64,000 nucleotides of DNA from a virus (taxonomy: Duplodnaviria > Heunggongvirae > Uroviricota > Caudoviricetes). Shown piece by piece: positions 503 through 64,000 of the stretch (positions are counted from its first letter, which is position 1; the number at the start of each line of letters is the position of its first letter). The position numbers and the translations under genes are program-made. The notes below the pieces were generated by a model. That model was not told the origin of the DNA and ran no database searches. It saw only the letters and a list, made by a program, of their open reading frames with translations. The DNA lies in the IMG/VR virus record IMGVR_UViG_2617270980_000003. One strand, given 5' to 3'.

Positions 503-505
503 GCA

Positions 506-1554: not shown

Positions 1555-1699
1555 GATTTATTTCCCCACCACATTATTAATGACGATATAAACGTATTTC
1601 ATATTTCTTAACCCTTATTTTCTGTTTTCAGGCGCAAGCAGTCCCCTGACGCGAGCGCCATAATTAAAATGAAGTGATATTTAATTGATTAATGTGGTG

Positions 1700-2230: not shown

Positions 2231-2241
2231 TTTGTTTTTCC

Positions 2242-3090: not shown

Positions 3091-3091
3091 C

Positions 3092-3358: not shown

Positions 3359-3586
3359 TTAGCTGACTTGTTTCGCACCAACAGAACGGCATATTCCGCT
3401 GTAAACTTCTGTCGCACCTTCGCGATCAAGTCCGGCAGATATCACCATTCGTGTGCGGTCATTAAATTCAAAAAGTAAATCGCCACATTCTTTATTTTCG
3501 GCCAGTGAAATCACCTTCACGTTATCGAAATTAACCAGGTAAAAGCGTCCGTAAATATCAGGAATATTAAATACCGCCATAATCAC
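3359..3586 (-). CDS. hypothetical protein, Mu-like early region (kil position)
   Basis: 75-aa ORF overlapping the stop of B by 4 nt; position corresponds to kil in Mu, but no sequence evidence. Confidence 0.4.
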   Translation of the reverse strand: MIMAVFNIPDIYGRFYLVNFDNVKVISLAENKECGDLLFEFNDRTRMVISAGLDREGATEVYSGICRSVGAKQVS

Positions 3587-4524
3587 ACCTGTGAGAGTAA
3601 TTCAGGGTTGGTATAAACCTCTTTAAAGGCCGCATTAATATGTTTTTCTGTCAGCGCCGCGCCTTCACCGCTGGCGGTGAGCCACGCCTGGTTAAGCGTA
3701 TGTGTCAGAACGCGTAACGCTCCCGGCTTTTCAGCGATAGCCTGCATGACGGCCAGCTCGGCCTCACCACTGATCCCCCACGCCATGGCAATGGCCAGCA
3801 CATCCGCCTTTTTGGCCTTGCGAAGTTGTTTTGTACGGGCAAGACGGCTGAACAGGCGCGATAAATCACCAAAGGCGCGGCGTCCACCTTTAAACAATCC
3901 GCGCGGGTTACCAATAAGCACCATCCCGATCCCCGTGGCGTCCTGAATTGCCCGGAGTTGCTCCAGACCGTCAATACCAAGATGATCCGCCTCATCCACA
4001 ATCACCAGTCCACGCGTTCCCATCAGGCGACGGCGGATGGCGCGGGATAATGCCCCTTTGTTCGCGCGGGTGTAATCAATCCCCAGCGCATCGGCCAGCT
4101 CCAGCAGACACTCCGTGACGCTGGAGTGCGCGGGTGACAGGGTGATCATCCAGGTGTTTGGTTGCTCCTGGCAGTAATTACGGGCAGTGGCCGTTTTACC
4201 CACACCCGGTACGCCCACAATAACGTTAATACAGCCCATCAGGCGAACCGCCTGAAACAGTGCGCGCAGCTCCTGGACTGTCTGAGTTTCCACAAACTGC
4301 GGCGGTTCCGGCAGTGCGCTTTGTTTATTCCAGTTCTCATACCAGGAGCGCAGGGAAGCAGCCACAGCAGCGTTATCGCCTTTATATTTTCCCTTACGGA
4401 AAGCCGATAATGTGCCGTCGGAAATTCCCGCCTCTCTGGCGATGGCATACTGCGTCAGTACGCCGCCATCAATAAGTTCATCAATGGTCTTGATTACATC
4501 GTTAATATCGGTCATATTATTCAC
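3583..4524 (-). CDS. Mu B-like transposition target-DNA activator (AAA+ ATPase)
   Basis: 313 aa; Walker A GVPGVGKTATARNY, Walker B LVIVDEADHL; ...LPEPPQFVETQTV... and C-terminal ...KPGALRVLTHTL... parallel Mu B as recalled. Confidence 0.9.
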   Translation of the reverse strand: MNNMTDINDVIKTIDELIDGGVLTQYAIAREAGISDGTLSAFRKGKYKGDNAAVAASLRSWYENWNKQSALPEPPQFVETQTVQELRALFQAVRLMGCINVIVGVPGVGKTATARNYCQEQPNTWMITLSPAHSSVTECLLELADALGIDYTRANKGALSRAIRRRLMGTRGLVIVDEADHLGIDGLEQLRAIQDATGIGMVLIGNPRGLFKGGRRAFGDLSRLFSRLARTKQLRKAKKADVLAIAMAWGISGEAELAVMQAIAEKPGALRVLTHTLNQAWLTASGEGAALTEKHINAAFKEVYTNPELLSQV

Positions 4525-4597
4525 CTCGCTTGAGACAGCATTCTCCGAGACTGAAACCTCAAATAACCTGAGTCACCCCTCGGGTTATTTTTTTATT

Positions 4598-48307: not shown

Positions 48308-49657
48308 ATGCGATTGACCGCTCCTGTTAAAGCGTTCTCAGATGGTTTTAGTACAGCAGATGACATATTTGGACGTAAAAAACTTCATGACATCATCATG
48401 CGGGTAGCAACAAATGCCCCAGATAAAAGTCTTGTACTTGCGCTCAATGATGAATGGGGTAACGGAAAAACCTCATTTGTAAAAATGATGTCATCAGAAA
48501 TAAATAAAAACCATGCTGACAACTTTGACGTTATTTACTTTGACGCTTTTGAAAATGACTATCAATCAGACCCATTTGTAGCCTTAACATCAAAAATTTA
48601 TTCACTCATAAAAAAAGAAGATGGAAAGCTTAAAAACCTCGGGAAAGAGTTATTATCCATTGGTAAAAAACTAGGCGCGTCATTCGCACTTAATGGTGCA
48701 AAATTTGCCGTAAGCACTTTCACAAGTGGATTAGTCTCAGGTAACGCACTGGAGAAAGCAAGTGATGCCATCAGTGACTCTCTCACATCACCTATTGAAG
48801 AGTACATTGAAGAAAAAATAAAAACGAGCGAGAGTGAGTTAGCAACAATTGAGCAATTTAGAGCATTGCTGACCAAGATTCACACTGAGTGTGGGAAAAA
48901 AATAATATTTATAATTGATGAGCTAGACAGGTCGCGACCTGATTTTTCCCTTGACTTGCTAGAGAAAATAAAACATATATTTTCAGTGGAAGGTTTTGTT
49001 TTCTTACTAGTAGTTAACCGTGAGCAGTTTGAAAAAAGTATAGAGTGTAGATATGGGAGCATAAATACAAGATTATATTTAAATAAATTTATTCATTATT
49101 GGTTTACTCTTCCTAAAAAAAGTATGCTCTCAGTAGGCTGCCGAGCAGGCTATGAACGTTCAACGTTAACACAATATCTCCTGTCGTTAGATCAAGGGAA
49201 TGACATACTGATTCGGAATGGTTCTCTCGTAAAAACCCTCGCGTATCTTCTAGAAATGAATAACTGTTCACTGCGAGAGGCTGAGCGTTGCTATTCAACA
49301 TTCGCAATAATGAACGACCCCAGCGAAGTAAATTCCTACCGACATGAAATATTTCATGTTGCCATCGCACTAGTTGCTTTCTTGAAAATATTCAACCAAT
49401 CCTTACTCATGGAAATATTAAACAAAAAACTGACAGAAGATGAGATATTTAAACGATTATCAATTCCTGTAAACCTTGTCGATGTTTCTGAGATTTATTA
49501 TATTGCAATATTGTTAAAATACCACTTAGCCACCGATGAAGAACTACGTTCCTCTGATATGCTCACTGAGTACGCATTCATGGCTGTAATACCTGGACAA
49601 CGAGTCAAATGGTTTGAAATGATGTATGAGAAGATCGAAGGCTTTGATATTAACTGA
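48308..49657 (+). CDS. KAP-family P-loop NTPase (cargo gene in P2 old/tin hotspot)
   Basis: 449 aa; Walker A NDEWGNGKTSF, Walker B IIFIIDELDRSRPD, hydrophobic stretch between them; AT-rich by eye. Confidence 0.75.
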   Translation: MRLTAPVKAFSDGFSTADDIFGRKKLHDIIMRVATNAPDKSLVLALNDEWGNGKTSFVKMMSSEINKNHADNFDVIYFDAFENDYQSDPFVALTSKIYSLIKKEDGKLKNLGKELLSIGKKLGASFALNGAKFAVSTFTSGLVSGNALEKASDAISDSLTSPIEEYIEEKIKTSESELATIEQFRALLTKIHTECGKKIIFIIDELDRSRPDFSLDLLEKIKHIFSVEGFVFLLVVNREQFEKSIECRYGSINTRLYLNKFIHYWFTLPKKSMLSVGCRAGYERSTLTQYLLSLDQGNDILIRNGSLVKTLAYLLEMNNCSLREAERCYSTFAIMNDPSEVNSYRHEIFHVAIALVAFLKIFNQSLLMEILNKKLTEDEIFKRLSIPVNLVDVSEIYYIAILLKYHLATDEELRSSDMLTEYAFMAVIPGQRVKWFEMMYEKIEGFDIN

Positions 49658-49936: not shown

Positions 49937-51088
49937 ATGTCATCAGAAAAAACAATAGAACGTTTCGTTGCAGCAGATGTTAGCGGTGCAATCTGGTTAC
50001 GATTAAAACGATTAATGAGTGCGCAGCTCTGTAAGAAAATAATAGAAAATAATCATCCGTCATTGCAAGAGGATGTATTGATTAAAAAATCCATTGGAAT
50101 GTCCTCCGCAATACGAAGTGCAATCGGATATTGGGAGACTGAAAATGGCGGACTCAATTCAAAAATTTTATCCAGATATTATGCATTATTACAGATAAGC
50201 TTAGCTGAACAAATATCATCAGGGGATCCTAACGACGATTTAAAAAATGTTCAAAAGCATACGGTTTCAGGTCATGGGCTATTCACACAATCTGTTGAAA
50301 ATGAAACATTCCCAGACAATATAAAAATAGGCTGTCTTAAAAGTGGACATTTTTATTCATATGCAAAGCATATAGGAATTGATATCAAACAGTATGCAAC
50401 AGAAAGACGTCCAAAAAAAGATGAAGATTTAGACCCATCACGCACCTATTCTTTAACTGATTTATTAAAACGAATTCCAGAATTAAGACCGCTTTTACAA
50501 GAAACTTTCGGTGAAGATCCACTTTCATTCCAAATTGGACAAGCAAGTAGAAACATGCTCTTAAGATCAAGGAATCAGTCACTCGGTGGCCTATCGCGTC
50601 CTAAACCAGAGTTCTCAGGTTTTACATATGCCGCAATTTATCCCAAAGGTAGCGATGTAACAGCAGAAGAGCTTAATTCTTACAACATTGGAATAAAAAA
50701 CATTGAAATTGAGTCAGAAGAAAACCTCACAAAATATGACCAACCATATTTTGTAGGAGAAGTCCATCACCCTGAAGATGAGCTATGGTGGGATTATGTC
50801 ACGACACACAAATCTGGTTATTGTGGAACGAGTGTAATTGTCCCATTTTGGGGAACTCAAGATCCCTTTGTATTACACTTAGTCGTATTATATACATTAA
50901 GCATTATAGTCAGGTATCTCCCTGACACTTGGTATGAGATTGAGCATGGCAAACTTGATTATATTAATTCCCTTTTGGAAAATTATTTAGCTATTTTTGA
51001 TAGTGTACTGCCTAAACTTGCGGTTGAAAGATTAACGAAAGTTCATTTGGTAGTAACAGCACCCGATAGCATGAATTCCCCTATCTAA
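49937..51088 (+). CDS. Hypothetical protein (second cargo gene in hotspot), no recognisable domain
   Basis: 383-aa ORF, AT-rich, own upstream region; C-terminal hydrophobic segment PFVLHLVVLYTLSIIVRYL. Confidence 0.6.
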   Translation: MSSEKTIERFVAADVSGAIWLRLKRLMSAQLCKKIIENNHPSLQEDVLIKKSIGMSSAIRSAIGYWETENGGLNSKILSRYYALLQISLAEQISSGDPNDDLKNVQKHTVSGHGLFTQSVENETFPDNIKIGCLKSGHFYSYAKHIGIDIKQYATERRPKKDEDLDPSRTYSLTDLLKRIPELRPLLQETFGEDPLSFQIGQASRNMLLRSRNQSLGGLSRPKPEFSGFTYAAIYPKGSDVTAEELNSYNIGIKNIEIESEENLTKYDQPYFVGEVHHPEDELWWDYVTTHKSGYCGTSVIVPFWGTQDPFVLHLVVLYTLSIIVRYLPDTWYEIEHGKLDYINSLLENYLAIFDSVLPKLAVERLTKVHLVVTAPDSMNSPI

Positions 51089-51157: not shown

Positions 51158-51469
51158 TCAATCATCATCTTGGTCATCCCCAGTGTCGCGAACGCATGAT
51201 TTTGACTCAAAGTATTTTTTTTCCGCAGCGGTAATCAGGGCTTGGTGTTCAGGGAAATCACGAAACACGTCTACTGCGGGCCATTCAATTTTCGTCACAA
51301 CCAACTTAGGCCTACTTTCCACCTCAGCTTCATCCTGGCTGATATAATGACTTTTTGACTCACGTTCCTCATGCGAAGATTCTCGATAATAGAGCCAATT
51401 TTGATAGTCAGCTTCCCGTTCATAATCATCAAAGTACTTGCCCACGCTTCCCCCCATTAATGAGCGCAA
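51158..51469 (-). CDS. Hypothetical acidic small protein downstream of A (overlaps A 3' end)
   Basis: 103-aa ORF with C-terminal ...DTGDDQDDD; may be spurious. Confidence 0.3.
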   Translation of the reverse strand: MRSLMGGSVGKYFDDYEREADYQNWLYYRESSHEERESKSHYISQDEAEVESRPKLVVTKIEWPAVDVFRDFPEHQALITAAEKKYFESKSCVRDTGDDQDDD

Positions 51470-54008
51470 CCCTTAATCTTTCAAGGAGTACATCATTCTC
51501 CCGCTTCCTTTCCGCTTTAACTCTCTGCTTAACTTCATCGCGGCGCTGTTCGACTACTTCTACCCCCTTCAGCTTCATAGTACAAGCCAAGCAGAGCTTT
51601 TCATCGCCATAGGTTATATCATCCTGATTTAACTCCGCATTACAATCTCTAGCCCTACAGTAAATTGCTTTGGTCTTTTCTACCAGATAGCCATCCTTCA
51701 GATAAACATGTCGATCATCAAAAGAAAGCAAAGCCCCGCGACGAAGGGCATCAATATCAGGCTTGGACTTAATTCCCCAAGAGGAAAGCTGATAGCGAAG
51801 GTGAGCAGTCATTGGTGTGGCCTCCACAACACTGCTCCGCCGGGTTGCTGATTCATCGCGGATAGCCGCCGCCACTTTCATGTAATTTTCAGCGCGCTCC
51901 TGATCTGCGCTATCGCAATCTGAAGCGGCAATAGCATTGGCAAGCGACTCAAACACATCAGCAGGTGATTTTTGCTGTTTTGGTTTGTAATTTCTGATGC
52001 TCTCATTAAGCCGTTTTTTCTGCTCTCGGCTCATTTGACCAATTTCATATTGTTCTGGATCTTCAGGCGGTGGATTTACCGCCCCTTGATTTGTATGTTT
52101 TTTGTACTCAGTACAGTTATTGACACGAGTCCAAGAGGGCGCGGGCGCGCCCTTAAGGTCAAAACCTCGATCGGCGGCGTCGTCTGCTTTTGGCTTCTTT
52201 TTGACAATGCGATAAGAATGGAGGCGGGTTTCAACCGGAGGAACGGTCGATGCTGGCATGACCACCCCTTTAATAACCCTCTGAAACTCGCCGTAACTGC
52301 TCGGCTCATCCCGATATTGATACCAGGCGCGCAACACAAGCCTATTCCGTGTCACGAACGGACCACCCTGCAAGGTGATGTAGTCCTGCCAGTTCCCGGC
52401 ATGGGCGGCGCGGTGTAACTCACCGAAAACCGGACTGATTCGATCTGCCATTTCCTGATTCTTCAGGCGGCGTAACTCACGCCAGACGGACACCGGCGCG
52501 CCACCCAGAAACTGAAACTGACGAATGCCCCAGCATGAAGCCCAGGCAGTAGCGTGTTTTGCTGTCTCCTTCAGTGGGCGTCCGCTTTCGTCGTCGCTTT
52601 CACCATCCAGTGCATAACCGTCGATGTTTTTAGATATGTACTTAACGACATATCCAGTAGCGCTCCCCAAAGCCGGATCTATCGGCTTAAGTTCAAAGCG
52701 GGGCTGTTTGCCATTCTTGCCGGTGAGTTCATCAGCATCTTCACGCGTGGCGTAGTCTTCCATCACTTCCAGCAATTCGCCGGTATGCTCTGGGGCTGTG
52801 AACAGAAGGCCATGCCAATGCGGAGTACCATCATGGTGAGACTCTGCAACACGAAGGCCAAAAACAGAAATCTCACGGCGCGCAAGCTCCGCGCGGATCA
52901 GTTGCCAGACGCGATTAAGGTAGTTTTGTGTCTTGCGGGGGCTGGCTCCGTTCCATTTGCGGTTACGATGCCCGAACGCTGTAAAGGCATGATATTTAGA
53001 CGGCGCGGTCAGGGTGAAGAAACTGCCGGCAAACCCGCTTTCCGTTGCCACCTTCTCAAATCCACCAATGCGCGTCATCAACTCAACACGGCGCTTTTCA
53101 GGATTAGAAATGCTCTTATCAATCTGCTCTATCAGCGAAATGCGCTCACCAGTTACCTGATCTTCAAGTTCAAGGCGGCTCATAATTGCGCGGCTACGCT
53201 TACGGCGTGAATCCCACTGCGTAACGTGGTGTTTGCTGCAATACGGTGAAACATCGCGGCGCACGTCACCATAGGCAATGTGCAAATGCTCGCGCCAGCG
53301 GCGGGCGTACTTGCGCAGGAGGCGTGACCAAAAGCGATCATGAAGGGTTTTTTGTATTGCTGCTGTCGCTTCATCAAGCGCCATCCGGCGCTTCTTCGCC
53401 CAGGGCGGCACTAACCTGAAATACGCAATCAGCCTGGAGCCTTCACGCAGCATGCGTTTGGTGTATTCAGTATCGTTGAACACACTTGCACCCTCGCTCA
53501 CTTCAGCCAAAACAGCATTGGCATAAATGGCTATGTCCTGAGCCAGCAAATCAATATCTTCATCCGTGCAATCCGCCAGATTATTAAAGCGGCGGACAAG
53601 TTCACGCAGATTTTCAAACGAGTGAAACAGTGGGTTTAGTTCAGAGAAAATGATCCACTCATTGTCTTCTGGCACAGCGTATTGTTTCGTGACGTTTCTG
53701 ACGTGTGGAAGCTCGCGCTTAACGATGTCGCGCAACTTCAGTTTTGCGATATGGCGCCCTTTATCCTCGTGAACGGTATTTATGTAAGAGGCAATGCGGC
53801 GGCGAATGAAGATAGGCAACGGCTTGAGGGGATTTTCAACCCAGGCGAAAAACTCCTGCTCTTGACCCAATTCATATAGATCAACAGCGGGAGCCTTATC
53901 AACGAAGATGGCGGCTTTTGGCTCATTCCAGGCGTAAGCATACCGGGCTGGCTCGATAGAGCCTCCCGGCATGTTGGTCATGCTATGAGAGCGGCGAAAT
54001 GAAGACAT
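51429..54008 (-). CDS. A: Rolling-circle replication initiator (P2 gpA-like HUH endonuclease)
   Basis: 859 aa; HUH motif ...HHDGTPHWHGLLF... and Tyr motif ...GYVVKYISKN...; early-operon position. Confidence 0.85.
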   Translation of the reverse strand: MSSFRRSHSMTNMPGGSIEPARYAYAWNEPKAAIFVDKAPAVDLYELGQEQEFFAWVENPLKPLPIFIRRRIASYINTVHEDKGRHIAKLKLRDIVKRELPHVRNVTKQYAVPEDNEWIIFSELNPLFHSFENLRELVRRFNNLADCTDEDIDLLAQDIAIYANAVLAEVSEGASVFNDTEYTKRMLREGSRLIAYFRLVPPWAKKRRMALDEATAAIQKTLHDRFWSRLLRKYARRWREHLHIAYGDVRRDVSPYCSKHHVTQWDSRRKRSRAIMSRLELEDQVTGERISLIEQIDKSISNPEKRRVELMTRIGGFEKVATESGFAGSFFTLTAPSKYHAFTAFGHRNRKWNGASPRKTQNYLNRVWQLIRAELARREISVFGLRVAESHHDGTPHWHGLLFTAPEHTGELLEVMEDYATREDADELTGKNGKQPRFELKPIDPALGSATGYVVKYISKNIDGYALDGESDDESGRPLKETAKHATAWASCWGIRQFQFLGGAPVSVWRELRRLKNQEMADRISPVFGELHRAAHAGNWQDYITLQGGPFVTRNRLVLRAWYQYRDEPSSYGEFQRVIKGVVMPASTVPPVETRLHSYRIVKKKPKADDAADRGFDLKGAPAPSWTRVNNCTEYKKHTNQGAVNPPPEDPEQYEIGQMSREQKKRLNESIRNYKPKQQKSPADVFESLANAIAASDCDSADQERAENYMKVAAAIRDESATRRSSVVEATPMTAHLRYQLSSWGIKSKPDIDALRRGALLSFDDRHVYLKDGYLVEKTKAIYCRARDCNAELNQDDITYGDEKLCLACTMKLKGVEVVEQRRDEVKQRVKAERKRENDVLLERLRVALINGGKRGQVL

Positions 54009-54190
54009 TAAGCCGCCTCAGATGAAAACCGTGTCGCCTGGCTGTATCGCTCTTGCGTCACGTTCAGAGTAGGTGATCAGGTCTGTATTGCTGTAACCAC
54101 CCTCGCCCAGAACTTCAACGCGAGTGATCCAATAATTACGGCGCGGGAGAACATCCAGCACCTTTGTCACTACAACCTCAACGGTATTCA

Positions 54191-54655
54191 TCAGAATGGC
54201 GCTCCATCATCAAAATCGAACGGGGGAGGCGTCGTCTTCCATGTCACCGGTTTACCTGGTTTACATTTCCGCGCGGCCTTGACTGTTGGATAGTTGAGGG
54301 AATGCCGGACAACTTCATCAGTCCACAAATCGTGCGCCTCGAAATCAACGCGCCAGCAACCTTTGCTAATGCAGCGGCGTGAAAAAACGCGCGTAACAAC
54401 GGCGCAAACCGTATGACTTTCAGGCTCGGCTTCAGCGGCAGGATCAAAGCCAAGAAAAACAAGCTCACTACTGTGAGACTTAATCAGGGGATCAAGAACC
54501 GCCCCGAAAGACTTACGAAGCGTCTTTTCAACATCAGGGCCAGCCAAAAGACCTGCATAACCAGCGTGAATTAATGCAGCCTCTTTTGCCTTTTCTAACG
54601 CCGCTATCGCGCCTTGCAGATAGCTCACGTGATCGTTAATGGACGGAGTAATCAT
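54191..54655 (-). CDS. Hypothetical protein (154 aa from ATG 54655) with SSB C-terminus-like tail
   Basis: Start ATG overlaps dam stop (TGATG); C-terminus ...PPPFDFDDGAPF resembles the SSB tip D-F-D-D-D-I-P-F. Confidence 0.5.
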   Translation of the reverse strand: MITPSINDHVSYLQGAIAALEKAKEAALIHAGYAGLLAGPDVEKTLRKSFGAVLDPLIKSHSSELVFLGFDPAAEAEPESHTVCAVVTRVFSRRCISKGCWRVDFEAHDLWTDEVVRHSLNYPTVKAARKCKPGKPVTWKTTPPPFDFDDGAPF

Positions 54656-55647
54656 CAGAAGTCCTCTGCTGCTGTGTATGAATCGCAGATCTCGCAGTTG
54701 CGACAGCAAAAGGTATCGCTTCCAGATTCATAGCCATCGCCAGCAACGGCAGGGCAACAGGTAGCGCAATAACCACGCCCTACTTGCCCGCACTCGTCAC
54801 AGACGAGCAGCGAACCAATCACCTCACCCGCGAGATTGCGTGTTTTTGCTCCCACAGAACGCCGGACTTCGAATGAGTTAAGGGTGAACGGGTAGTAAAT
54901 TTGGCGCGTTTCCGGGGTGTCACTGCCGGAAATAACAGAGGGTATTTTTGCCTGGTTGTAGAGGCGTGAAAGCATCGCAACCAGGGCGCGATGGTCTTCA
55001 TCAGTAAAGGGCTTACCGTATGCAGTAAAATTTGCAGTCTCGCTGGCTGGCAGGTATGGAGGATCGCAATAAACCACGCAGCCTGAATGCCCGATAGATA
55101 GAGGAATTGTTTCTCTGAAATCACCATGCAGGAACATTGCCCCTTTGTCCCAAGCCCTTTTTGCAAAATGCTGAATCTCAGCCACAGGGAAAATTGGCTT
55201 CTTACGAAAACCAAAAGGAACGTTGAATTCATTCTTTAAATTAACACGGTAAACACCGTTGTAGCAGTGACGATTCAAATAAAGAAATAGCGCTGCATAT
55301 TTAACTAATTCATCATTTGTATATTGCTCTCTATGCCCTGCGTACTCGCGATTAAAAATATTGAAGTCATCACGATTTATGTAATATGCATCTTCATTAT
55401 TACCAGTCAAAAACAAGGCGGATGCATAAGTTAAAAGCGCTTCTGTGTTGCGCTTAACCATAGAGAAGAAATTAATTAGGGCTGCATTGCTATCACACAG
55501 AATATAGGTTTTATAGTCTGTATTCAGAAAGACGCTACCACTACCCACAAAAGGCTCAACGAGGCATTCACCCTGCGGCAGAGCATCCAGTACATGAGGC
55601 ATCGCGCGAGACTTGCCGCCAGCCCAGATCAGAGGGGAGTTAATCAC
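54655..55647 (-). CDS. dam: Dam-like DNA N6-adenine methyltransferase with Cys-rich C-terminal extension; start revised to GTG 55647
   Basis: ...LIWAGGKSRAM... and DPPY motif (VVYCDPPYLP); C-terminal ...CDECGQVGRGYCATCC...CCRNCEICD; GTG 55647 preceded by AAGGAG, track ATG 55719 has no SD. Confidence 0.75.
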   Translation of the reverse strand: MINSPLIWAGGKSRAMPHVLDALPQGECLVEPFVGSGSVFLNTDYKTYILCDSNAALINFFSMVKRNTEALLTYASALFLTGNNEDAYYINRDDFNIFNREYAGHREQYTNDELVKYAALFLYLNRHCYNGVYRVNLKNEFNVPFGFRKKPIFPVAEIQHFAKRAWDKGAMFLHGDFRETIPLSIGHSGCVVYCDPPYLPASETANFTAYGKPFTDEDHRALVAMLSRLYNQAKIPSVISGSDTPETRQIYYPFTLNSFEVRRSVGAKTRNLAGEVIGSLLVCDECGQVGRGYCATCCPAVAGDGYESGSDTFCCRNCEICDSYTAAEDF

Positions 55648-55807
55648 TTTTTTGCTCCTTGATTTCTGCGGCCTGTTCTCTGTTGTCGATCCAGTTTTCC
55701 AGGCTGCGATAAATTTCATTGGTGGACAGTTTTTCTTTTTTCAGCAAGGTTAATTTGATACGTAACAATCCAAGCAGGTGCGCGCGTTCATTTGTTTGAA
55801 TTGTCAT
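55640..55807 (-). CDS. Small ORF (55 aa), not in ORF track, translationally coupled to dam
   Basis: ATG 55807 preceded by AGGGGG; MTIQTNERAHLLGLLRIKLTLLKKEKLSTNEIYRSLENWIDNREQAAEIKEQKSD; stop overlaps dam GTG. Confidence 0.45.
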   Translation of the reverse strand: MTIQTNERAHLLGLLRIKLTLLKKEKLSTNEIYRSLENWIDNREQAAEIKEQKSD

Positions 55808-55887
55808 AATCAACCCCCTGAAAAAAGATAAAGCGAAGCCCCGGTAAAAACGCCGTAAATAAAATGATTTAGATTGCAGTTAATTAA

Positions 55888-56169
55888 TTAGCGAGCGCCG
55901 CTATTCCAGTATTTTTCTAATTCAATACTGAAGGTGTCACATATAGAGCCACCCGGAAGAATAGAAAATTGAATGCCCGTTTCCTTACATCGCACCTCAA
56001 AACCATTTTTCGCTATATCAGACAGTGCCATTCCCTGAACAACATTACGCGACTTGCTGTGTTGGTGATTTGGACCATAGCCACTACGGGACGGCGTGCG
56101 GGTTCCGTCCTGCCTGGAAGCATTGACGCTCTGGCGAGCGTTCAGAATAGCTGCGGTTGAAGTAGTCAT
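55888..56169 (-). CDS. hypothetical protein, P2-like early operon
   Basis: 93-aa ORF in tight array. Confidence 0.4.
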   Translation of the reverse strand: MTTSTAAILNARQSVNASRQDGTRTPSRSGYGPNHQHSKSRNVVQGMALSDIAKNGFEVRCKETGIQFSILPGGSICDTFSIELEKYWNSGAR

Positions 56170-56363
56170 TATTTCCCCCGATGAAGCTGATCAATCGTCT
56201 GACGGGCCTGAGACAGACCGAAGTCCAGCCCCAGATAATTTCCGCCTTTGGTGATTTGGTAGCGCTGCCGTGAATACGGCTTTTTGCGCGGCAACTTCAC
56301 GATCGTGAAGCCGCGATAAATTGCTGTTTTGCTGTTGATTTGGATAAGCATCGCAAACTCCAT
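56169..56363 (-). CDS. hypothetical protein, P2-like early operon
   Basis: 64-aa ORF immediately after cox. Confidence 0.4.
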   Translation of the reverse strand: MEFAMLIQINSKTAIYRGFTIVKLPRKKPYSRQRYQITKGGNYLGLDFGLSQARQTIDQLHRGK

Positions 56364-56367
56364 GTAG

Positions 56368-56643
56368 TTATGAACGATCGCCCAATCCTAACCACATCAA
56401 CCACCCCTCTCTGATTTCCTTCGGACGGCTTTCATATGCTAGTTTCATGCCGTTGTTCCATGCCGGAAGATATACCCAGTATTCTCCCGCACGCCCAGAC
56501 GTGGATTGCGGATCGGTCATTTCAATAACGGGCAACTTCCCTTTTTCGATCATTCCCTTCACGGCTGCCGGTGTTTTACCGATGAGTTTTGCAAACTCCT
56601 GGTAAGGAACCGCGTCAGTTGCACTTACAAGCTGTCTGTTCAT
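56368..56643 (-). CDS. cox: Cox-like regulator/excisionase (P2 Cox position)
   Basis: 91 aa, divergent from C repressor gene, first gene of early operon. Confidence 0.65.
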   Translation of the reverse strand: MNRQLVSATDAVPYQEFAKLIGKTPAAVKGMIEKGKLPVIEMTDPQSTSGRAGEYWVYLPAWNNGMKLAYESRPKEIREGWLMWLGLGDRS

Positions 56644-56763: not shown

Positions 56764-57063
56764 ATGTCAACCCCGATATTTGAAAAGATAAAACTCATCC
56801 GTGAATCAGAAAGGTTAAACAAGAGGCAATTCAGCGAGTTAACGGGCATTGCCTATAGCACGTTGGGGGGCTACGAATCTGGAGTTAAAAGTCCCGGCGT
56901 AGAAGCCATAATGAAAATGCTACAGCACCCCAGATTTAGTAAATACACCCTGTGGTTTATGACCGATCAAATTGCTCCTGAAGCCGGTCAGATTGCACCG
57001 GCACTCGCACACTTTGGGCAAGATGTAACAACATCGCAGCACTCAGACCAAAAGACTGGTTAA
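56764..57063 (+). CDS. C: Immunity repressor C (P2 C-like)
   Basis: 99 aa; ...FSKYTLWFMTDQIAPEAGQIAPALAHFGQ... matches P2 C as recalled. Confidence 0.85.
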   Translation: MSTPIFEKIKLIRESERLNKRQFSELTGIAYSTLGGYESGVKSPGVEAIMKMLQHPRFSKYTLWFMTDQIAPEAGQIAPALAHFGQDVTTSQHSDQKTG

Positions 57064-57208: not shown

Positions 57209-58222
57209 ATGACAATTAAGAAACTCGATGATGGTCGTTATGAAGTGGACATTAGACCTAGCGGACGCAACGGAAAACGCATCCGCAGGAAGTTTGACAA
57301 GAAAAGTGAGGCAGTGGCCTTTGAGAAGCACACGCAATACAACCACCACAACAAGGATTGGTTAGCGAAGCCGACCGATAAAAGGCAACTTTCCGAATTG
57401 ATTCAAATCTGGTGGGAACTCAAGGCAAAGCACGAGGAATGGGGAAAGTACAATCGGGGAAAGGTCGAGAAATTCGCGGCGATAACCGGTGATCCGTGCG
57501 CGTTTCAGATTACAAAGACGGTAATTAGCCAGTATGTTGCAGCTCGGCGAGGTGAAGGCGTTAAGCCATCTACCATCAATCGGGATCTGACATGCATCAG
57601 CGGAATGTTTACCGCTCTGATTGAGGCCGAGCTATACCATGGCGAACACCCGATAAGAGGACGTAAACGACTCAAAGAGGAGAAGCCCGAAACGGGCTAT
57701 TTAACCAACGAGGAAATTACCGCCCTTTTCTCGCGGCTCGATGGTGACAATAAAAAAATAGCGGTTCTTTGCCTAAGCACGGGCGCTAGGTGGGGTGAAG
57801 CGGCAAAACTGAAAGCCGAGCACATCATCCATAATCGGGTGACGTTTGTTAAAACCAAAACGAACAAACCCCGAACGGTGCCAGTATCGGCAGAAGTATG
57901 TGAAATACTCACCAGCGTGAAGCGCGGCTTCCTGTTCCCGAATGCCGATTACACGTTGTTCCGGCAGGTACTGAAAGAGGTAAAGCCCGACCTGCCAGCA
58001 GGACAGGCAACCCATGCTCTACGGCACAGTTTTGCTACGCATTTCATGATTAACGGAGGAAGCATTATCACGCTACAAAGGATACTCGGTCACGCGCGCA
58101 TAGAGCAGACAATGGTCTACGCGCACTTCGCGCCAGAGTATTTACAAGATGCCGTAACACTCAATCCGTTAAAGGGCGGCATTGAACCCGAAAACGTCCA
58201 CACAGTGTCCACACTCGGGTGA
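57209..58222 (+). CDS. int: Tyrosine integrase (P2 Int-like)
   Basis: 337 aa; C-terminal catalytic region ...HALRHSFATHFMINGGSIITLQRILGHARIEQTMVYAHF... Confidence 0.9.
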   Translation: MTIKKLDDGRYEVDIRPSGRNGKRIRRKFDKKSEAVAFEKHTQYNHHNKDWLAKPTDKRQLSELIQIWWELKAKHEEWGKYNRGKVEKFAAITGDPCAFQITKTVISQYVAARRGEGVKPSTINRDLTCISGMFTALIEAELYHGEHPIRGRKRLKEEKPETGYLTNEEITALFSRLDGDNKKIAVLCLSTGARWGEAAKLKAEHIIHNRVTFVKTKTNKPRTVPVSAEVCEILTSVKRGFLFPNADYTLFRQVLKEVKPDLPAGQATHALRHSFATHFMINGGSIITLQRILGHARIEQTMVYAHFAPEYLQDAVTLNPLKGGIEPENVHTVSTLG

Positions 58223-58526
58223 TTTATAGCGGCTTTCAGTGGCTTTATGTGGTGCTCAAACCCGCATTACACCGCTGAAAGCCCGTATATCAAAGGGCTA
58301 CCAACGCCCCCGATGGAGCCTTCATTTTCACTTTCTTAAATCTAACGATAGACGGCTAACATTTAAGTATTGTGAAATATTATCAAATGTAATCATCATT
58401 GATTTACAAAAGATACATTTTGCCCCGAAAGGATTCCTGTCAGAAACATCAAAAGATGATGTTCTATACTGAGAACCATGGCAACACGGGCATCTAAAGT
58501 GAATATGGTTTGTAATATTTTCTACC

Positions 58527-58742
58527 TCAAAGTGCCACAACATGAACAGCCGCGGGGCCTTTAGGTCCGTTCTCAATACCAAATTCGACTTCCTGATTCT
58601 CAGTTAACGTTTTGAAATCGTTGCTCTGAATAGCTGAGAAATGGACAAACACATCTTTGCTACCATCTTTCGGCGTGATGAAACCAAAACCTTTTTCAGG
58701 GTTAAACCATTTCACTAAACCAGTCATTTTGTTAGACATCAT
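58527..58742 (-). CDS. cspI: Cold-shock protein, CspA family (CspI-like prophage moron)
   Basis: [38 protein letters not shown]... with RNP1/RNP2 motifs; sits downstream of Rz as cspI does in Qin. Confidence 0.75.
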
Positions 58743-59102
58743 TATTACCTTTTGAAGAAGTTAGCCCTTGGGCAGAATGGTCCGAAAAAAAATATCAGAG
58801 AGAAAAACCAACAAGGAAATCTCAAGAGGTACAAATAATAAAATTATAACAATGACTGCTTCAGATAATTTTGTAACAAACCAGAACACCATTAACGCAT
58901 GATTAACCAACCATAGCAAGGATTACTTTTGTAAAGAAAAACACACGAATGAAACAATAGCTTTATTTATTAATAAAACGTGTCATTCTGTCTAATGACC
59001 TTTTATCTTACCCTTAAGATTTCAAGGATTTTGACTCATGGAAGAGTCCTTTTTATTTAAATTTCACATTCAGCGCTAAAAATAATCCGATTTAATATTA
59101 AT

Positions 59103-60130
<1,028 letters not shown>

Positions 60131-60451
60131 GGATATTTATCAGGATTTATCGGCTTCAAATCCCCGGATATGTTAAATCTTACCTCACCAGTGATGGGCA
60201 CTGGCGGGAGGGGGGTGTCAATCTGATAAACACAAAGGCGACTATGGATTACACAAAACTACCTAAACAAACTTTTGCTGATTTAATCGCACTCAGGCAA
60301 GCAGTCGTAGCTCTAATCAACTTGTTGCCGGAGAAGGAAAAGGAATTAGTTAAAGCGCTTCTTAACAGAACTGCCGCCGATTTTTCATCATATCCACTGA
60401 CAGATGACCTTGCGGACCTTCCTGAATTAATTGCAGCGTCCGCCAATAAGC

Positions 60452-61003
60452 TTACTGAAGAGATTTACCCTCCTCAAAAATCTTCACAAAATTCCTGCGA
60501 GTAACTTCAATGCAATAATCGTAAAACGCCGCAAACTGCTCATCGCGGCGTTTTTTTTCATCTTCAGAAGGAATCAGCACCGACAATTTTTTATTCAGAT
60601 CAGCGACGCTGCCCTCCAGTTTTTCAATGGGCGATTCAATATCATCTTTTTCTGACCGCAATGCCGTCGGTGGCGTCTTCAGAGAACCAGTAATTCTTCC
60701 CGGTAGCTTTCCTTTGTAGGTTATCCACACATTCTGCGCCTCTAAAATTATGGGGCGCTTTTCCGGCGACTGCTCATCCCCTTCACATAACCCGGCAGCA
60801 ACATCCAGGAAGACCTGTCTGATGCTCCTTCTGGCTGCTGCCTCATAAAACTCCAGCGCGGCACCTTCAACACGGTCCAGCGAGATGTCCAGGTCAAAAA
60901 TTTCACCGTCAAAGTGTTTTTTGTCCCGTAAGGCTACAGTTACCGCCACTTTATTCTCAAAATTGCGAACTCCTTTCACAACCAGTTCATAGTCTTGAGT
61001 CAT
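60452..61003 (-). CDS. Hypothetical protein inserted between holin and endolysin
   Basis: ATG 61003 lies 5 nt after the holin stop; occupies the ydfR position of Qin but is longer; track start 61024 is TTG. Confidence 0.45.
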   Translation of the reverse strand: MTQDYELVVKGVRNFENKVAVTVALRDKKHFDGEIFDLDISLDRVEGAALEFYEAAARRSIRQVFLDVAAGLCEGDEQSPEKRPIILEAQNVWITYKGKLPGRITGSLKTPPTALRSEKDDIESPIEKLEGSVADLNKKLSVLIPSEDEKKRRDEQFAAFYDYCIEVTRRNFVKIFEEGKSLQ

Positions 61004-61007
61004 TGGA

Positions 61008-61223
61008 TTACTCTCTTCTCGCAACCTTACGCCTGTCTTCTTTAATCTTGAAATAAAGGTTTGTCAGATACGTCAGCATGCCAAATACCAGACTACCCAA
61101 TACACCTATTGCCGCCCACTGTGAGGGCGTGACTTTATCGAGCAACTGTAAAAACCAGTAGCCAGCACTGCCTGCAGAGGTGCTGTAGGCGATGCCCGTT
61201 GTTAACTTATCCATGGATTTCAT
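61008..61223 (-). CDS. Class II holin / pinholin (S21/EssD-like)
   Basis: From ATG 61223: [71 protein letters not shown] (71 aa), near-identical to phage-21-type holin as recalled. Confidence 0.8.
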
Positions 61224-61413
61224 AGCCTCACCTCCGCAGATAACGGATGGTGTACACGGTTTGGTTCGAAGAAGGAAAGAAGTTACATTAGCGTAAGGCC
61301 CGAACATCTATTCAAAAAGAAAAACGCCAGCAATTATTCTGGCGTAGCTAAAAATATCGTATAATCTTACACTTCAAAAAATAACTTTATAAAATGCCAT
61401 CACATCATATCTT

Positions 61414-62136
61414 CTAAGAAAATCTTGATAAATATTGGTGCGGAGGCACACCAAAATATCCTCTAAAAACACTTACAAAATATGATGCATTGTCATACCC
61501 GCATATTCCCGCCACCTTGCCGACAGTATGGTTACTGTAGATCAATAATCTTTGCGCCATCATCATTCGTTCTTCAAGAATTAATTTACTAAACGATAAT
61601 CCTTCGTCTTTTAATTTTCTTTTTAACAAACTCTCGCTCATATATAATCTTGAAGATATATCACAAAGTCTCCATGACGCTGAGATATCCGAGTGAATAA
61701 TAGCCTTAACTTTACAACCTAAGCTATTAAGACTTCCGAACAAAAAACTTTGCACTATTTTCTCTGAAGATAAGACAGCAAGACATGCAAGTGATATTTG
61801 ATTTCTAACTACATCCACGGTTTTGCTATCACAATTCAAGCATGCAACCAAGTTCCTTAACAATGAAAAATCTTCACATTCTACTATCAAGTATGACGGA
61901 TAAAACCTTCTTACAGAAAAAGGTGAGAGTGTGTAGTTTTTAAAGAAATCATTAACTGTTTTCTCCTCAATATCTACGATCATTAGATGATCTGTATTTG
62001 ACGAAAAAAGATCTTTTAAATTGTATTCAATGAGGACAGCATTTCCTTTTTTAAACAAAATATCTTCTTTACCAATTCGGACACCAAACGAGTTCAACAC
62101 CAAAATGATAGAACATATGTATGGCATATTATCCAC
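61414..62136 (-). CDS. AraC-family transcriptional regulator
   Basis: C-terminal AraC HTH ...GKVAGICGYDNASYFVSVFRGYFGVPPHQY; AT-rich gene with long AT-rich upstream region. Confidence 0.7.
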   Translation of the reverse strand: MDNMPYICSIILVLNSFGVRIGKEDILFKKGNAVLIEYNLKDLFSSNTDHLMIVDIEEKTVNDFFKNYTLSPFSVRRFYPSYLIVECEDFSLLRNLVACLNCDSKTVDVVRNQISLACLAVLSSEKIVQSFLFGSLNSLGCKVKAIIHSDISASWRLCDISSRLYMSESLLKRKLKDEGLSFSKLILEERMMMAQRLLIYSNHTVGKVAGICGYDNASYFVSVFRGYFGVPPHQYLSRFS

Positions 62137-62533
62137 CTGATATCATTGGGGTTACACCAGGTAAGTATAGGTGGAAAATCAATATTCGCCAGTTCAACAA
62201 TAAGGAAAATCTCATTGCATCACAACTATAAAACCATGTGTTTAACTCACAAAAAACAAATCATTAAACTAATCTGTTATATTATAATAGCTGCGTGCAA
62301 TAATAATATTATATGCTCTTTATATTCACTTGAAATATCTTCATATAAAAACAGATTGAATAAAATCTTTTGGGGCTGGTATGTTTACCAACATTAAATT
62401 GCATCTCAATGTTTTCTTTAGCGTGAACAGGATTTTTATAAAAACTGACACTATGAGCATCATAGCGTAGTTTTTACGATTGTAAATATCCTGCATACAG
62501 GAACTCATCACTTTCAGATGATATCGCATACAG

Positions 62534-63493
62534 TTAATTCACCATCAGTCTTAGAGCCAGTTCTTCCGGATAGGGATCGAAGTAATTCTGTGTAAGCAAG
62601 TAATCATTAGGATACTCACCCAGATAATGCTTCAGCAGAGTCAACGGCGCAAGAAGAGGCAATGTGCCAAAGCGATAGTTAAGTATAACCTCGCTCAACT
62701 CTTTACGCTGGCGTGTACTTAAGTAATTACTAAAATACCCCTGTATATGCATCAGCACATTCGTGTGATTTTTACGTGATGCTGGTTTTCTGAGAATCGC
62801 CATCAGATTATCACGATACACCTCAAAGTATGATTCAAGGTCCGCCCACTCGTGTATTGCAGCCACAAATGGTCCCATATCTTTATAGCCTGCCTGGCTA
62901 TGCGCCAACAACTGAAGCTTATAACGACTATGAAAAGCTAATAACTCTCTTCTTGATAATTTCTCCTTGTAAAGGTGATTGAGCTCATGCAAAGCAAAAA
63001 CTCTTTCAATAAAATTCTCACGAAGCACTGGATCATGTAATCGCCCATCCTCTTCAACCGGTAGCCAGGAAAACTTTTCCATCAAAGTGCTCGTAAATAG
63101 TCCCACTCCATCTTTACGACCTCGATTACCATTTTCATCATAGACACGCACGCGCTCCATGCCACAGCTGGGAGATTTAGCACAAACCACAAACCCCGAT
63201 ACATCCTTTAATTTGTCCATATAAGAACGACTAAACTCTGTCATTCTCTCTGTCACATCCTCATTCTGGTCGTGGCTGAAACACATCCGTATATTTCCTT
63301 GCTTCGAGCGCACAAGTCGTAGAGCAGGACGCGGAACTGGCAGCCCTATAGCCATTTCCGGACATACTGGTCTGAATGTTACCCATTCCACTAATTTGTC
63401 CATTAAAAAGTCATCTCTTTTGTGACCACCATCAAAACGAACAGCAGAACCGCCCAAACAACCGCTGATCCCAATCACAGGTTTTTTTATCAT
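62534..63493 (-). CDS. DUF523/DUF1722-family protein (YbgA-like)
   Basis: 319 aa; N-terminal Cys-containing ...GISGCLGGSAVRFDGGHK...CPEM...; family assignment from memory. Confidence 0.5.
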   Translation of the reverse strand: MIKKPVIGISGCLGGSAVRFDGGHKRDDFLMDKLVEWVTFRPVCPEMAIGLPVPRPALRLVRSKQGNIRMCFSHDQNEDVTERMTEFSRSYMDKLKDVSGFVVCAKSPSCGMERVRVYDENGNRGRKDGVGLFTSTLMEKFSWLPVEEDGRLHDPVLRENFIERVFALHELNHLYKEKLSRRELLAFHSRYKLQLLAHSQAGYKDMGPFVAAIHEWADLESYFEVYRDNLMAILRKPASRKNHTNVLMHIQGYFSNYLSTRQRKELSEVILNYRFGTLPLLAPLTLLKHYLGEYPNDYLLTQNYFDPYPEELALRLMVN

Positions 63494-63685
63494 TTCCTCC
63501 CCCTTGACTAATTCATTAACACATAAACTTTGTAGTGCACGGACTAAATTGCCTTTCTGGCTTCATCACTGACAATTTTTCTGTTATTGACTATTCCTAA
63601 TATAGTAGGAAAGTTCTTTAAGTGATCGGTCGTACTCATCTATCTTTCATACTTACTCTCAACTATCAAAAGTACAGGATTTATT

Positions 63686-64000
63686 ATGAAGTTATGGCCT
63701 GTGTTGACTGGCATTGCACTCTCTTTCACTCTTATAGCATGTAAGGCCCCGACACCACCTAAAGGTGTGCAGCCGATTACAAATTTTGACGCCAACCGCT
63801 ACCTCGGAAAATGGTATGAAATAGCTCGCCTCGAGAACTGGTTCGAACGTGGTCTGGAACAGGTCAGCGCTACTTATGAAAAACGGAACGACGGAGGGAT
63901 TCGCGTACTTAACCGTGGATACGATCCAACGAAAAACAAATGGAGCGAGAGCGAAGGTAAAGCATACTTTACTGGAGATACTAAAACTGCAGCGTTGAAA
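63686..64000 (+). CDS. blc: Outer-membrane lipocalin Blc-like, 5' part (continues beyond window); not in ORF track
   Basis: ATG 63686: MKLWPVLTGIALSFTLIACKAPTPPKGV...FDANRYLGKWYEIARLENWFERGLEQVSATY..., lipobox plus lipocalin motif, similar to E. coli Blc as recalled. Confidence 0.7.
   Translation, partial: MKLWPVLTGIALSFTLIACKAPTPPKGVQPITNFDANRYLGKWYEIARLENWFERGLEQVSATYEKRNDGGIRVLNRGYDPTKNKWSESEGKAYFTGDTKTAALK

Follow-up and report, generated by a model that had tools for sequence, protein, structure and literature searches.

A P2-like prophage Dam-type adenine methyltransferase with a conserved, acidic, cysteine-rich C-terminal tail

Temperate phages commonly carry orphan DNA methyltransferases of the Dam type, and these enzymes are well understood in outline. 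Host Dam is limiting for multicopy DNA, and phage-encoded Dam can serve an anti-restriction function; phage Dam is also sensed by a bacterial defense system, the retron Sen2 (bioRxiv 10.1101/2020.06.22.160242). The roles of individual E. coli Dam (EcoDam) residues in base contact have been described (PMC4417163). A second arrangement with features in common is the com-mom module of phage Mu, in which a small ORF overlaps the start of the DNA-modification gene and its product, Com, activates mom translation in a manner that requires Cys6, 9, 26, and 29 of Com (PMC3299994).

In this study, we examine a methyltransferase gene in a 64,000-nucleotide stretch of viral DNA (IMG/VR record IMGVR_UViG_2617270980_000003; hereafter the window). 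The gene encodes an ordinary Dam-type DNA adenine methyltransferase whose sole oddity is a cysteine-rich C-terminal tail. Taken as a whole, the locus probably specifies an orphan GATC methyltransferase of the Dam type, expressed from an early P2-like operon, with a tail that holds two Cys4 metal sites. The gene itself adds little to what is known, and the tailed protein amounts to a small variation on a familiar enzyme architecture; a conserved cysteine tail of this kind is undescribed in the profile libraries, the PDB, and the papers that we searched. The features of the locus are collected in Table 1.

Table 1. Features of the dam region, with positions given on the window
Feature	Position	Strand	Remarks
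57-aa gene between dam module and gene A	54018..54191	(-)	conserved
154-aa ORFan	54191..54655	(-)	coupled to Dam by TGATG overlap; insertion relative to close relatives
Dam-family N6-adenine DNA methyltransferase CDS, 330 aa	54655..55647	(-)	GTG start, TGA stop 54655-54657; profile matches, EcoDam match
Acidic Cys-rich C-terminal tail, residues 279-330	54658..54813	(-)	net charge -7
Second cysteine cluster, C314-C315-x2-C318-x2-C321	54685..54708	(-)	
First cysteine knuckle, C283-x2-C286-x7-C294-x2-C297, plus C298	54754..54801	(-)	
Catalytic and target-recognition core, residues 8-263	54859..55626	(-)	Pfam envelope, alignment to E. coli Dam
55-aa gene, no cysteines	55640..55807	(-)	ATG at 55807, stop TAA 55640-55642
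Shine-Dalgarno AAGGAG of Dam gene	55655..55660	(-)	within 3' end of 55-aa ORF; 7 nt before GTG 55647
U-rich leader of 55-aa gene, including GGGGG	55808..55856	(-)	conserved across five relatives

The prophage is P2-like (Peduoviridae) and resides in E. coli, with host flanks 99.8% identical to that species. Profile searches recognized Cox (PF10743 Phage_Cox, E 1e-42) and the gene A product (PF05840 Phage_GPA, E 6.7e-95); an integrase and an HTH (C-type) repressor are present and divergent, and Cox, repressor, integrase, and gene A stand in the P2 order. On the minus strand the genes run cox, a DUF4761 gene, a 93-aa gene, the 55-aa gene, dam, the 154-aa gene, the 57-aa gene, and replication gene A. 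An equal order is found in PGAP-annotated relatives and in the phages SEN5 and SW3, the closest phages being Peduoviridae. A Pe-like promoter lies at 56770-56741, and after infection or derepression transcription of the operon would begin at the early promoter that precedes cox. Across the region, searches for an internal promoter, a terminator, RNA structure, or an Rfam element gave nothing above background.

A sequence-only reading of this DNA had proposed a prophage Dam-like methyltransferase with a DPPY motif, and the profile matches, the motif, and the P2-like context all bear this out. The 330-aa protein matched PF02086 over residues 8-263 (E 2.5e-55; 188.4 bits against a cut-off of 22) and TIGR00571 'dam' (223.9 bits; cut-off 114.85). 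The AdoMet-binding motif I (FxGxG) is EPFVGSGSV at residues 31-39 (55531-55557, minus strand) and the catalytic motif IV, DPPY, occupies residues 195-198 (55054-55065, minus strand), so that the order I ... IV is kept. By sequence, the closest solved relative was E. coli Dam (2G1P, E 1e-56). An AlphaFold model of the core, with pLDDT mostly 75-96, aligned by Foldseek to EcoDam chains with E ~1e-23 and target TM 0.89-0.91, and all matches of the model in the PDB fold search were to the core only. The protein scored 238.3 bits against NF008152, the chromosomal Dam equivalog, under the cut-off of 441, and it is a phage paralogue distinct from the housekeeping chromosomal enzyme. NCBI annotates the exact protein as an E. 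coli Dam family methyltransferase.

The same reading had placed the start at GTG 55647 behind AAGGAG, a choice that the relatives uphold. In L001, L004, L005, and L010 the homologous start codon is ATG, preceded by AAGGAG or AAGGAA. The longer in-frame version, which would begin at ATG 55719, is broken by stop codons in L005, and L001 lacks an ATG for it. Judged from these alignments, GTG 55647 is the correct Dam start.

The upstream 55-aa ORF, which had been described as possessing its own Shine-Dalgarno sequence, overlapping the Dam start, and being absent from the first ORF track, proved to be a real gene but not a hidden or novel one. Its product matched phrog_12723 (E 3.9e-16), a family that comprises 16 clusters from prophages of Enterobacterales; gene callers, PGAP among them, predict it in every related prophage examined, and NCBI records already hold it as a hypothetical protein. 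Its omission from the first track is thus most likely a length-threshold effect. The Shine-Dalgarno sequence GGGGG (55814-55818) stands 6 nt upstream of the ATG, and the 55-aa gene would be translated from it. The U-rich leader is visibly better conserved than the remaining alignment (five relatives; whole-alignment mean column identity 90%), and a search of it for a promoter or terminator consensus or a stable fold found none. A fusion of the small ORF to Dam, hinted at by a mixed 90% cluster, was rejected, as the 327-aa members are ordinary Dam proteins and the mixture a clustering artefact.

The 55-aa gene ends within dam, the two sharing 8 nt at the Dam start (GTGATTAA), an overlap kept in E. 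coli, Citrobacter, and Hafnia relatives, and Dam translation from the GTG would probably be coupled to termination of the small gene 8 nt downstream. As in com-mom (PMC3299994), a small ORF here runs into the start of the modification gene, and this, together with the persistent pairing of the two genes in those same three groups of relatives, could be read as the mark of a dedicated Com-like translational regulator of the methyltransferase. We regard that role as very improbable, since the 55-aa product lacks cysteine altogether whereas Com needs four (PMC3299994), the ORFs that precede Dam in SEN5 and in Klebsiella phages belong to other families, and inhibitory RNA structure near the Dam start was not above shuffled controls.

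What sets the protein apart is the stretch of 52 residues beyond the Dam core. The sequence-only reading had described a tail of about 45 residues with about ten cysteines; the cysteine-rich tail stands, while the count is corrected to nine (positions 283, 286, 294, 297, 298, 314, 315, 318, and 321), lying within 39 of the 52 residues. The core has 5 cysteines in 278 residues, and the binomial probability of at least 9 in 52 at that frequency is 3.6e-7. Cysteine tails are carried by many of the Dam proteins that P2-like prophages of Enterobacteriaceae encode, and a single-knuckle cluster by itself numbers 1716 sequences. Of 118 related prophage Dam clusters, 115 contain a CxxC-x6/7-CxxC knuckle, in which C283, C286, C294, and C297 are each at least 90% conserved; as the other 3 clusters are each without one knuckle cysteine, the first knuckle is not absolutely required. 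The second cluster is confined to 9 of the 118 clusters plus the phages SEN4 and SEN5. Within this double-cluster subclade C314, C318, and C321 are invariant, as are eight cysteines overall, and C298 goes with the second cluster (9/9 versus 1/106). The eight-cysteine form of the tail is rare, and is absent from characterized Dam enzymes.

A frameshift artefact had been named as one outcome that would overturn the sequence-only reading, and the pattern of substitution speaks against it. Compared with four relatives, codon changes in the tail comprise 15 synonymous and 3-5 non-synonymous, the cysteine columns are invariant while their codons alternate between TGT and TGC, and the tail is kept in homologues only 47-55% identical, all of which indicates that it is under purifying selection. 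In addition, exact copies of the window protein, drawn from different samples, were found across 86 index blocks of the assembly collection. A related suggestion is that the tail is non-functional read-through, kept only because the next gene's ribosome-binding site lies in its 3' end. In nearly every relative the codons for E-x-F and the TGATG that follows overlap the GGAG Shine-Dalgarno sequence and the next start, and the ending [GA]FDxxExF also occurs on unrelated upstream genes. This accounts for the last few codons only, and SEN5 keeps its tail without any stop-start overlap; for the cysteine region an artefact is effectively refuted, and we give the artefact or read-through reading almost no weight.

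The translation-initiation region concerned belongs to the 57-aa gene and sits in the final codons of any upstream gene. Relatives from E. coli, Hafnia, and Klebsiella have the 57-aa gene after Dam, with the junction GGAG..TTCTGATG in common, and the same ending is seen on proteins unrelated to one another, namely Dam, the 154-aa ORFan, and a Hafnia 72-aa ORF, whenever these precede the 57-aa gene. We had considered that the ending (AFDDLEAF, FDFDDGAPF) might mimic the SSB C-terminus, DDDIPF (PMC5872125); this was downgraded, both because E-x-F overlaps the GGAG and TGATG of the next gene and because unrelated proteins share the ending. In the window the 154-aa ORFan is interposed, and the 154-aa and then the 57-aa gene would be translated through TGATG stop-start overlaps. 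The ORFan is seen only in this prophage lineage, is missing in ES1, AMSCJX04, and 6409, and carries the repeat TTCTGATGA on its flanks; searches of Pfam, PHROGs, NCBIfam, and PADLOC matched it to no family, and its N-terminal 58 residues are 41% identical to the ORF standing ahead of Dam in a Klebsiella prophage. Modular exchange of genes and tails is documented at a repeated TTCTGATGA junction. For the tails in particular, E. coli 6409 pairs a short tail with a core ~80% identical at the DNA level, which indicates that tails move between cores as modules.

Searches with the tail alone returned little. Pfam, NCBIfam, PHROGs, and the PDB gave no match, and the zinc-finger motif search by which a zinc-binding module was to be recognized found nothing for the window tail in Pfam even at E up to 10; at the same threshold a Klebsiella tail gave a single match, to the TFIIB zinc ribbon at 0.1. 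Against 1.8 billion representative proteins the only match was spurious and of low complexity, species-representative genomes yielded none, and tblastn against phages recovered SEN4 and SEN5 only. In IMG/VR the tail found 4 double-cluster and 10 short-tail loci, all of them Dam. A ten-tail profile retrieved nothing but a partial Dam; since it evidently missed known members, it is uninformative. AlphaFold assigned the tail pLDDT 37-54 in the full-length model and a mean of 49 when modeled alone, and with values below 55 in both models a fold search of the tail is not meaningful. A literature search for a zinc or cysteine tail of phage Dam found nothing relevant.

From the spacing and invariance of the eight cysteines, two Cys4 metal (zinc) sites are most likely, C283/C286/C294/C297 and C298/C314/C318/C321. 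An iron-sulfur cluster bound by the nine cysteines would instead make the enzyme redox- or iron-sensitive. The CxxCxxC spacing occurs in 4Fe-4S motifs, and it is present in C314-C315-x2-C318-x2-C321, where CCxxCxxC resembles part of a ferredoxin-type motif. This reading is nevertheless improbable: most family members have only the CxxCG...CPxCG knuckle typical of zinc ribbons and rubredoxin knuckles, the eight invariant cysteines fit two Cys4 sites, and no Fe-S family matched the tail. In 186-like phages a TraR/DksA zinc-finger gene adjoins dam, but an origin of the tail from that gene was also rejected, its CxxC-x17-CCxxC pattern being unrelated and the gene lying on the opposite side of dam.

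DNA enzymes that end in Cys4 knuckles often bind DNA through them, and a zinc finger here might add non-specific affinity or processivity, as the Fpg/Nei zinc finger or the C-terminal domain of CcrM may suggest. The conservation of the knuckle in nearly the whole family agrees with such a role, as does the non-specific DNA binding of the CcrM domain (PMC6787082). We nonetheless find a DNA-binding finger unlikely, because the charge is the opposite of that of a DNA-binding surface (tail -7 with two basic residues among 52, and a family tail mean of -3.3, set against +4.7 for the cores) and because no fold could be assigned to the tail. The strong acidity makes a metal-stabilized module for protein docking or self-regulation the likelier reading, and we infer that the tail may be a small module of this type. 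One specific form of docking is that the tail tethers the methyltransferase to a replication protein, be it gpA, the 57-aa protein, or some host protein with affinity for acidic tails that end in Phe, of which the SSB C-terminus is one, by analogy with Dnmt1, which is tethered to PCNA in replication-coupled methylation. We hold this form to be improbable; were it true, phage DNA would be methylated while it is replicated, and swapping tail variants from core to core would redirect the enzyme or control it.

Conservation of contact residues makes GATC specificity most likely. The EcoDam contacts Y119, N120, R124, and P134 are conserved as Y129, N130, R134, and P144, and the recognition hairpin, which includes all four, is identical to that of EcoDam at 21 of 29 residues. 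[quoted passage not shown] On this alternative, an enzyme without the K9-equivalent contact would read the first base pair less strictly, tending towards NATC, giving methylation beyond that of host Dam and hence real anti-restriction breadth. Ile7 is characteristic of this subclade, the wider family consensus being Lys; the first base-pair contact is unconserved in the Dam family and an ATC-recognizing ancestor has been proposed (PMC4417163), and non-specific phage Dam-like enzymes exist (PMC3299994). Against these stand the 21 hairpin residues shared with EcoDam and the fact that wild-type EcoDam is itself less strict at the first base pair (PMC4417163), and a departure from strict GATC specificity seems unlikely. 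The prophage shows no excess or deficit of GATC, which is uninformative either way.

The enzyme is predicted to be an orphan that belongs to no type II restriction-modification system. Its best PADLOC match was the orphan methyltransferase model (E 5e-77), the neighboring proteins gave no nuclease or restriction-modification match in Pfam, PHROGs, NCBIfam, or PADLOC, and relatives retain dam while the flanking small genes differ. An anti-restriction role, which the sequence-only reading had raised, is not obviously needed, because the E. coli host has its own Dam that already methylates GATC and the contact residues suggest the same target. Because host Dam would mask GATC methylation, and because the gene lies in a repressor-controlled early operon, the methylome of a lysogen would probably be blank with respect to this enzyme. 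We envisage that the phage enzyme methylates replicating phage DNA while host Dam is limiting, so that progeny DNA would stay fully methylated and be protected from GATC restriction enzymes that methylation blocks.

If the tail governs the place, the timing, or the partners of the enzyme's action, it would bear on the methylation of fast-replicating phage DNA, on the evasion of methylation-sensitive restriction, and on the triggering of defenses that sense phage Dam, such as retron Sen2. The practical value is otherwise modest and lies in the confirmed start codon and small-gene annotation and in the record of modular exchange.

The window enzyme shares with E. coli Dam (2G1P, 4RTJ) the D12-class fold (TM 0.9; 38-40% identity over residues 6-268), the FxGxG and DPPY motifs, and the residues Y119/N120/R124/P134; E. 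coli Dam has a short C-terminus, in contrast to the 52-residue acidic, cysteine-rich tail of the phage-borne enzyme. The tail-less Dam proteins of temperate phages (P1/P7; 186-like Peduoviridae such as Klebsiella phage ST258-KPC3phi16.1) are likewise orphan members of the family, and in the 186-like phages dam also stands directly upstream of gene A; their alignments end near residue 280, without the cysteine tail, and in a 186-like phage it is a separate TraR/DksA C4 zinc-finger gene that overlaps the dam start. Like the window Dam, CcrM is an adenine methyltransferase with a C-terminal accessory domain, one that binds DNA non-specifically (PMC6787082), whereas the tail here is acidic and cysteine-rich. 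CcrM belongs to a different methyltransferase class, and its C-terminal domain is not known to have a cysteine-metal motif. Phage Mu com-mom resembles the locus in having a small ORF that overlaps the start of a DNA-modification gene and a Cys4 zinc motif within the module (PMC3299994). In Mu the zinc finger is in Com, whereas here the cysteine motifs are in the enzyme and the small ORF has none, and Mom lies outside the Dam family of methyltransferases.

Also comparable are the short-tail Dam proteins in P2-like prophages of Klebsiella, Citrobacter, Enterobacter, and Salmonella (for example in phages 3LV2017 and SW3), which fall in the same clade and operon position and have the first knuckle, VCxxCG-x5/6-CPxCG, and the acidic E-x-F end, but lack C298 and the second cluster and have 4-6 cysteines as compared to 9. 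The Dam of the Salmonella phages SEN4 and SEN5 (ALF02331.1; Peduoviridae, Senquatrovirus) is 47% identical to the window enzyme, has both cysteine clusters, and is likewise encoded in an early operon upstream of gene A. It differs in being preceded by another small ORF (phrog_21140), in being followed by a Dcm-type cytosine methyltransferase, and in ending ...PETW, without the stop-start overlap.

The 330-aa product of the methyltransferase gene (dam) belongs to the Dam family; both this identity and the structure of the gene are settled. As the sequence-only reading had proposed, it is a Dam-like methyltransferase with a DPPY motif (motif IV, residues 195-198, window 55054-55065; motif I is EPFVGSGSV). 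Residues 8-263 match PF02086 (E 2.5e-55), and the protein scores above the cut-off of the TIGR00571 'dam' subfamily and under that of the chromosomal Dam equivalog model. Its closest solved relatives are the structures of E. coli Dam (EcoDam; E 1e-56 over residues 6-268), on which the AlphaFold core superposes with a target TM of ~0.9. Of the EcoDam base contacts (PMC4417163), R124, Y119, N120 and P134 are conserved in the alignment as R134, Y129, N130 and P144, whereas L122 and K9 are changed to V132 and I7. [quoted passage not shown] GATC sites are about as frequent in the prophage as expected, no nuclease-like neighbour of dam was found, and the best PADLOC model is an orphan methyltransferase (E 5e-77).

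Past the end of the core (...AGEVIG), residues 279-330 form a tail with cysteines at 283, 286, 294, 297, 298, 314, 315, 318 and 321, as compared to five in the 278 core residues (enrichment p = 3.6e-7). The cysteine-rich segment noticed earlier is therefore present, with nine cysteines rather than about ten. A frameshift artefact is argued against by the 53 tail codons, which carry 15 synonymous and 3-5 non-synonymous changes in comparison with four relatives that are 12-18% divergent in DNA; the cysteine codons alternate between TGT and TGC with Cys retained, and given this pattern the tail is real coding sequence. Consistently, 86 index blocks of public assemblies contain the identical protein, and the 47%-identical Dam of Salmonella phages SEN4 and SEN5 has the same cysteine pattern.

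A first knuckle, CxxC-x6/7-CxxC (here C283/C286/C294/C297), occurs in 115 of the 118 full-length family clusters, usually as VCxxCG...CPxCG, a signature of zinc-ribbon or rubredoxin-type knuckles. The second cluster (C314-C315-x2-C318-x2-C321) is found in only nine, in which eight cysteines (283, 286, 294, 297, 298, 314, 318 and 321) are invariant; Cys298 accompanies it in 9/9 cases, versus 1/106 otherwise, although these cases are phylogenetically non-independent. The simplest reading of the eight invariant positions is two putative Cys4 sites.

The double-cluster tail sits on two core lineages, 86-94% and ~53% identical to the window Dam, and cores of intermediate identity have a short tail with the first knuckle only. 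In E. coli 6409, where the core is ~80% identical in DNA, the change to the short tail falls exactly at the tail boundary. The same tail on two separate lineages, together with this switch, indicates that tails are exchanged between Dam cores as modules. Outside the P2-type Peduoviridae of enterobacteria, alignments end at residue ~280, and a few at 284-301, in a spread sample of 60 listed from 640 matching records. PGAP flags the 6409 dam (NZ_CP010371.1; L005 3354-4310) as a pseudogene 'missing C-terminus'; its frame is intact into a single-knuckle tail ending ...GAFEDQEVF, and the flag seems to be a false call brought about by the tail swap.

No entry in Pfam, NCBIfam, PHROG or PDB covers the tail, searches with the tail alone, exhaustive as well as profile-based, found nothing but Dam proteins or noise, and AlphaFold gave no usable model of it. 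Its net charge is -7 (family tail mean -3.3; core average +4.7), and this acidity argues for a protein-docking or self-regulating module rather than a classical DNA-binding finger. The family-wide ending E-x-F-COOH resembles an SSB-type tip, but it falls at the GGAG Shine-Dalgarno and the TGATG stop-start overlap of the gene that follows; [GA]FDxxExF also ends unrelated proteins whenever they lie upstream of the conserved 57-aa gene. Conservation of E-x-F may thus act largely on nucleotides. The SEN5 Dam ends in ...PETW without a stop-start overlap, so a protein-level role of the tail end is possible.

The prophage is P2-like, and dam lies in its early region (window 51.4-58.3 kb), where the early operon, from cox to gene A, is divergent from the integrase and repressor. 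A sigma-70-like promoter upstream of cox (56770-56741) has the position expected of a P2-type early promoter.

Genes of the prophage early region (window coordinates)
Feature	Coordinates	Strand	Profile match
Integrase	57209-58222	+	
99-aa HTH repressor	56764-57063	+	
cox	56368-56643	-	PF10743, E 1e-42
DUF4761-like gene	56169-56363	-	
93-aa gene	55888-56169	-	
55-aa ORF	55640-55807	-	
Methyltransferase (dam)	54655-55647	-	
154-aa ORF	54191-54655	-	
57-aa ORF	54018-54191	-	
Replication gene A	51429-54008	-	PF05840, E 6.7e-95

The host is E. coli, since the flanks, a Mu-like prophage on the left (transposase, Gam; 1-6000) and Qin-remnant lysis genes rrrQ, rzpQ and ydfR on the right (58300-64000), match E. 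coli chromosomes at 99.8% identity. E. coli has its own chromosomal Dam. A lysogen methylome would be uninformative, with the operon under repressor control and GATC methylated by the host. In other assemblies the same prophage occupies a second chromosomal site, adjoining GGDEF genes.

The proposed dam start, GTG 55647 behind AAGGAG (7-nt spacer), is upheld by its relatives: four related prophages have ATG at the homologous codon behind the same motif, and PGAP places the start identically in relatives. The alternative, longer frame (ATG 55719) contains stop codons in E. coli 6409 and lacks the ATG in strain ES1. RNA structure around the start did not exceed shuffled controls. The small upstream ORF is likewise a real gene, with a GGGGG Shine-Dalgarno 6 nt upstream of ATG 55807, an end 8 nt inside dam and a match to phrog_12723 (E 3.9e-16), but it is not hidden, being already present in public records as a hypothetical protein. 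Gene calls in the related loci examined include it with the same overlap (4 nt in ES1), and its family is small, with 16 clusters from Escherichia, Citrobacter, Enterobacter, Hafnia and Kluyvera. Its product has no cysteine and is therefore not Com-like, and it is not a universal partner of Dam, because the ORFs preceding dam in SEN5 and Klebsiella phages belong to other families. Its 90% identity cluster also holds 327-aa Dam proteins lacking the 55-aa sequence, and this mixture appears to be an artefact of clustering rather than a gene fusion. A U-rich leader 5' of the ORF (55808-55856, -; ACGGCGTTTTTACCGGGGCTTCGCTTTATCTTTTTTCAGGGGGTTGATT) is more conserved than adjacent sequence in the same alignment of E. 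coli and Hafnia-type relatives; searches of it gave neither a promoter or terminator consensus nor a stable fold or Rfam match.

Downstream of dam, the 154-aa ORFan is an insertion that E. coli ES1, AMSCJX04 and 6409 lack. The insert, 465 nt long, lies between 9-nt direct repeats (TTCTGATGA), by which both junctions retain the TGATG overlap. It has no family match and is present in this prophage lineage only; its N-terminal 58 aa are 41% identical to a small ORF preceding dam in a Klebsiella prophage, and its C-terminus, FDFDDGAPF, resembles the SSB tip DDDIPF. The gene directly 5' of the 57-aa gene always ends in [GA]FDxxExF, then TGATG (54640-54670; 54176-54206; L010, a related locus, 6316-6349). 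Dam short tails, the ORFan and a Hafnia 72-aa ORF all follow this pattern, which suggests a portable junction or translation-initiation module for gene-cassette swaps.

The gene A product (859 aa) has a private C-terminal domain (residues ~770-859; 51429-51700, -) with C784-x4-C789-x17-C807-x2-C810, a motif missing from the gpA C-termini of four relatives (813-864 aa); the domain has no Pfam match at E up to 10. The variable stretch that separates gene A from the portal gene encodes a KAP-family P-loop NTPase (48308-49657, +), which matches PADLOC candidate system PDC-S20 (E 1.2e-74), and a YaaC-like protein (49937-51088, +), likely anti-phage defence cargo. Their position is occupied in E. 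coli ES1 by a second gene annotated DNA adenine methylase, downstream of gene A (L001 7183-7354).

In all likelihood, the enzyme acts as the orphan Dam enzymes of other phages do. Host Dam becomes limiting when DNA is multicopy; the Dam of phages has an anti-restriction function, and it can also set off retron defence (bioRxiv 10.1101/2020.06.22.160242). The profile libraries contain no Dam core combined with a one- or two-site Cys tail, and no paper describing this combination was found in the literature searched. Nor does it occur in the characterised EcoDam, T4 Dam, DpnM and P1/P7 Dam. The 186-like relatives have no such tail; next to their dam there is instead a separate TraR/DksA zinc-finger gene, unrelated to the tail. 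The novel element is the Cys tail, carried on a Dam enzyme that is itself of the familiar phage orphan type.
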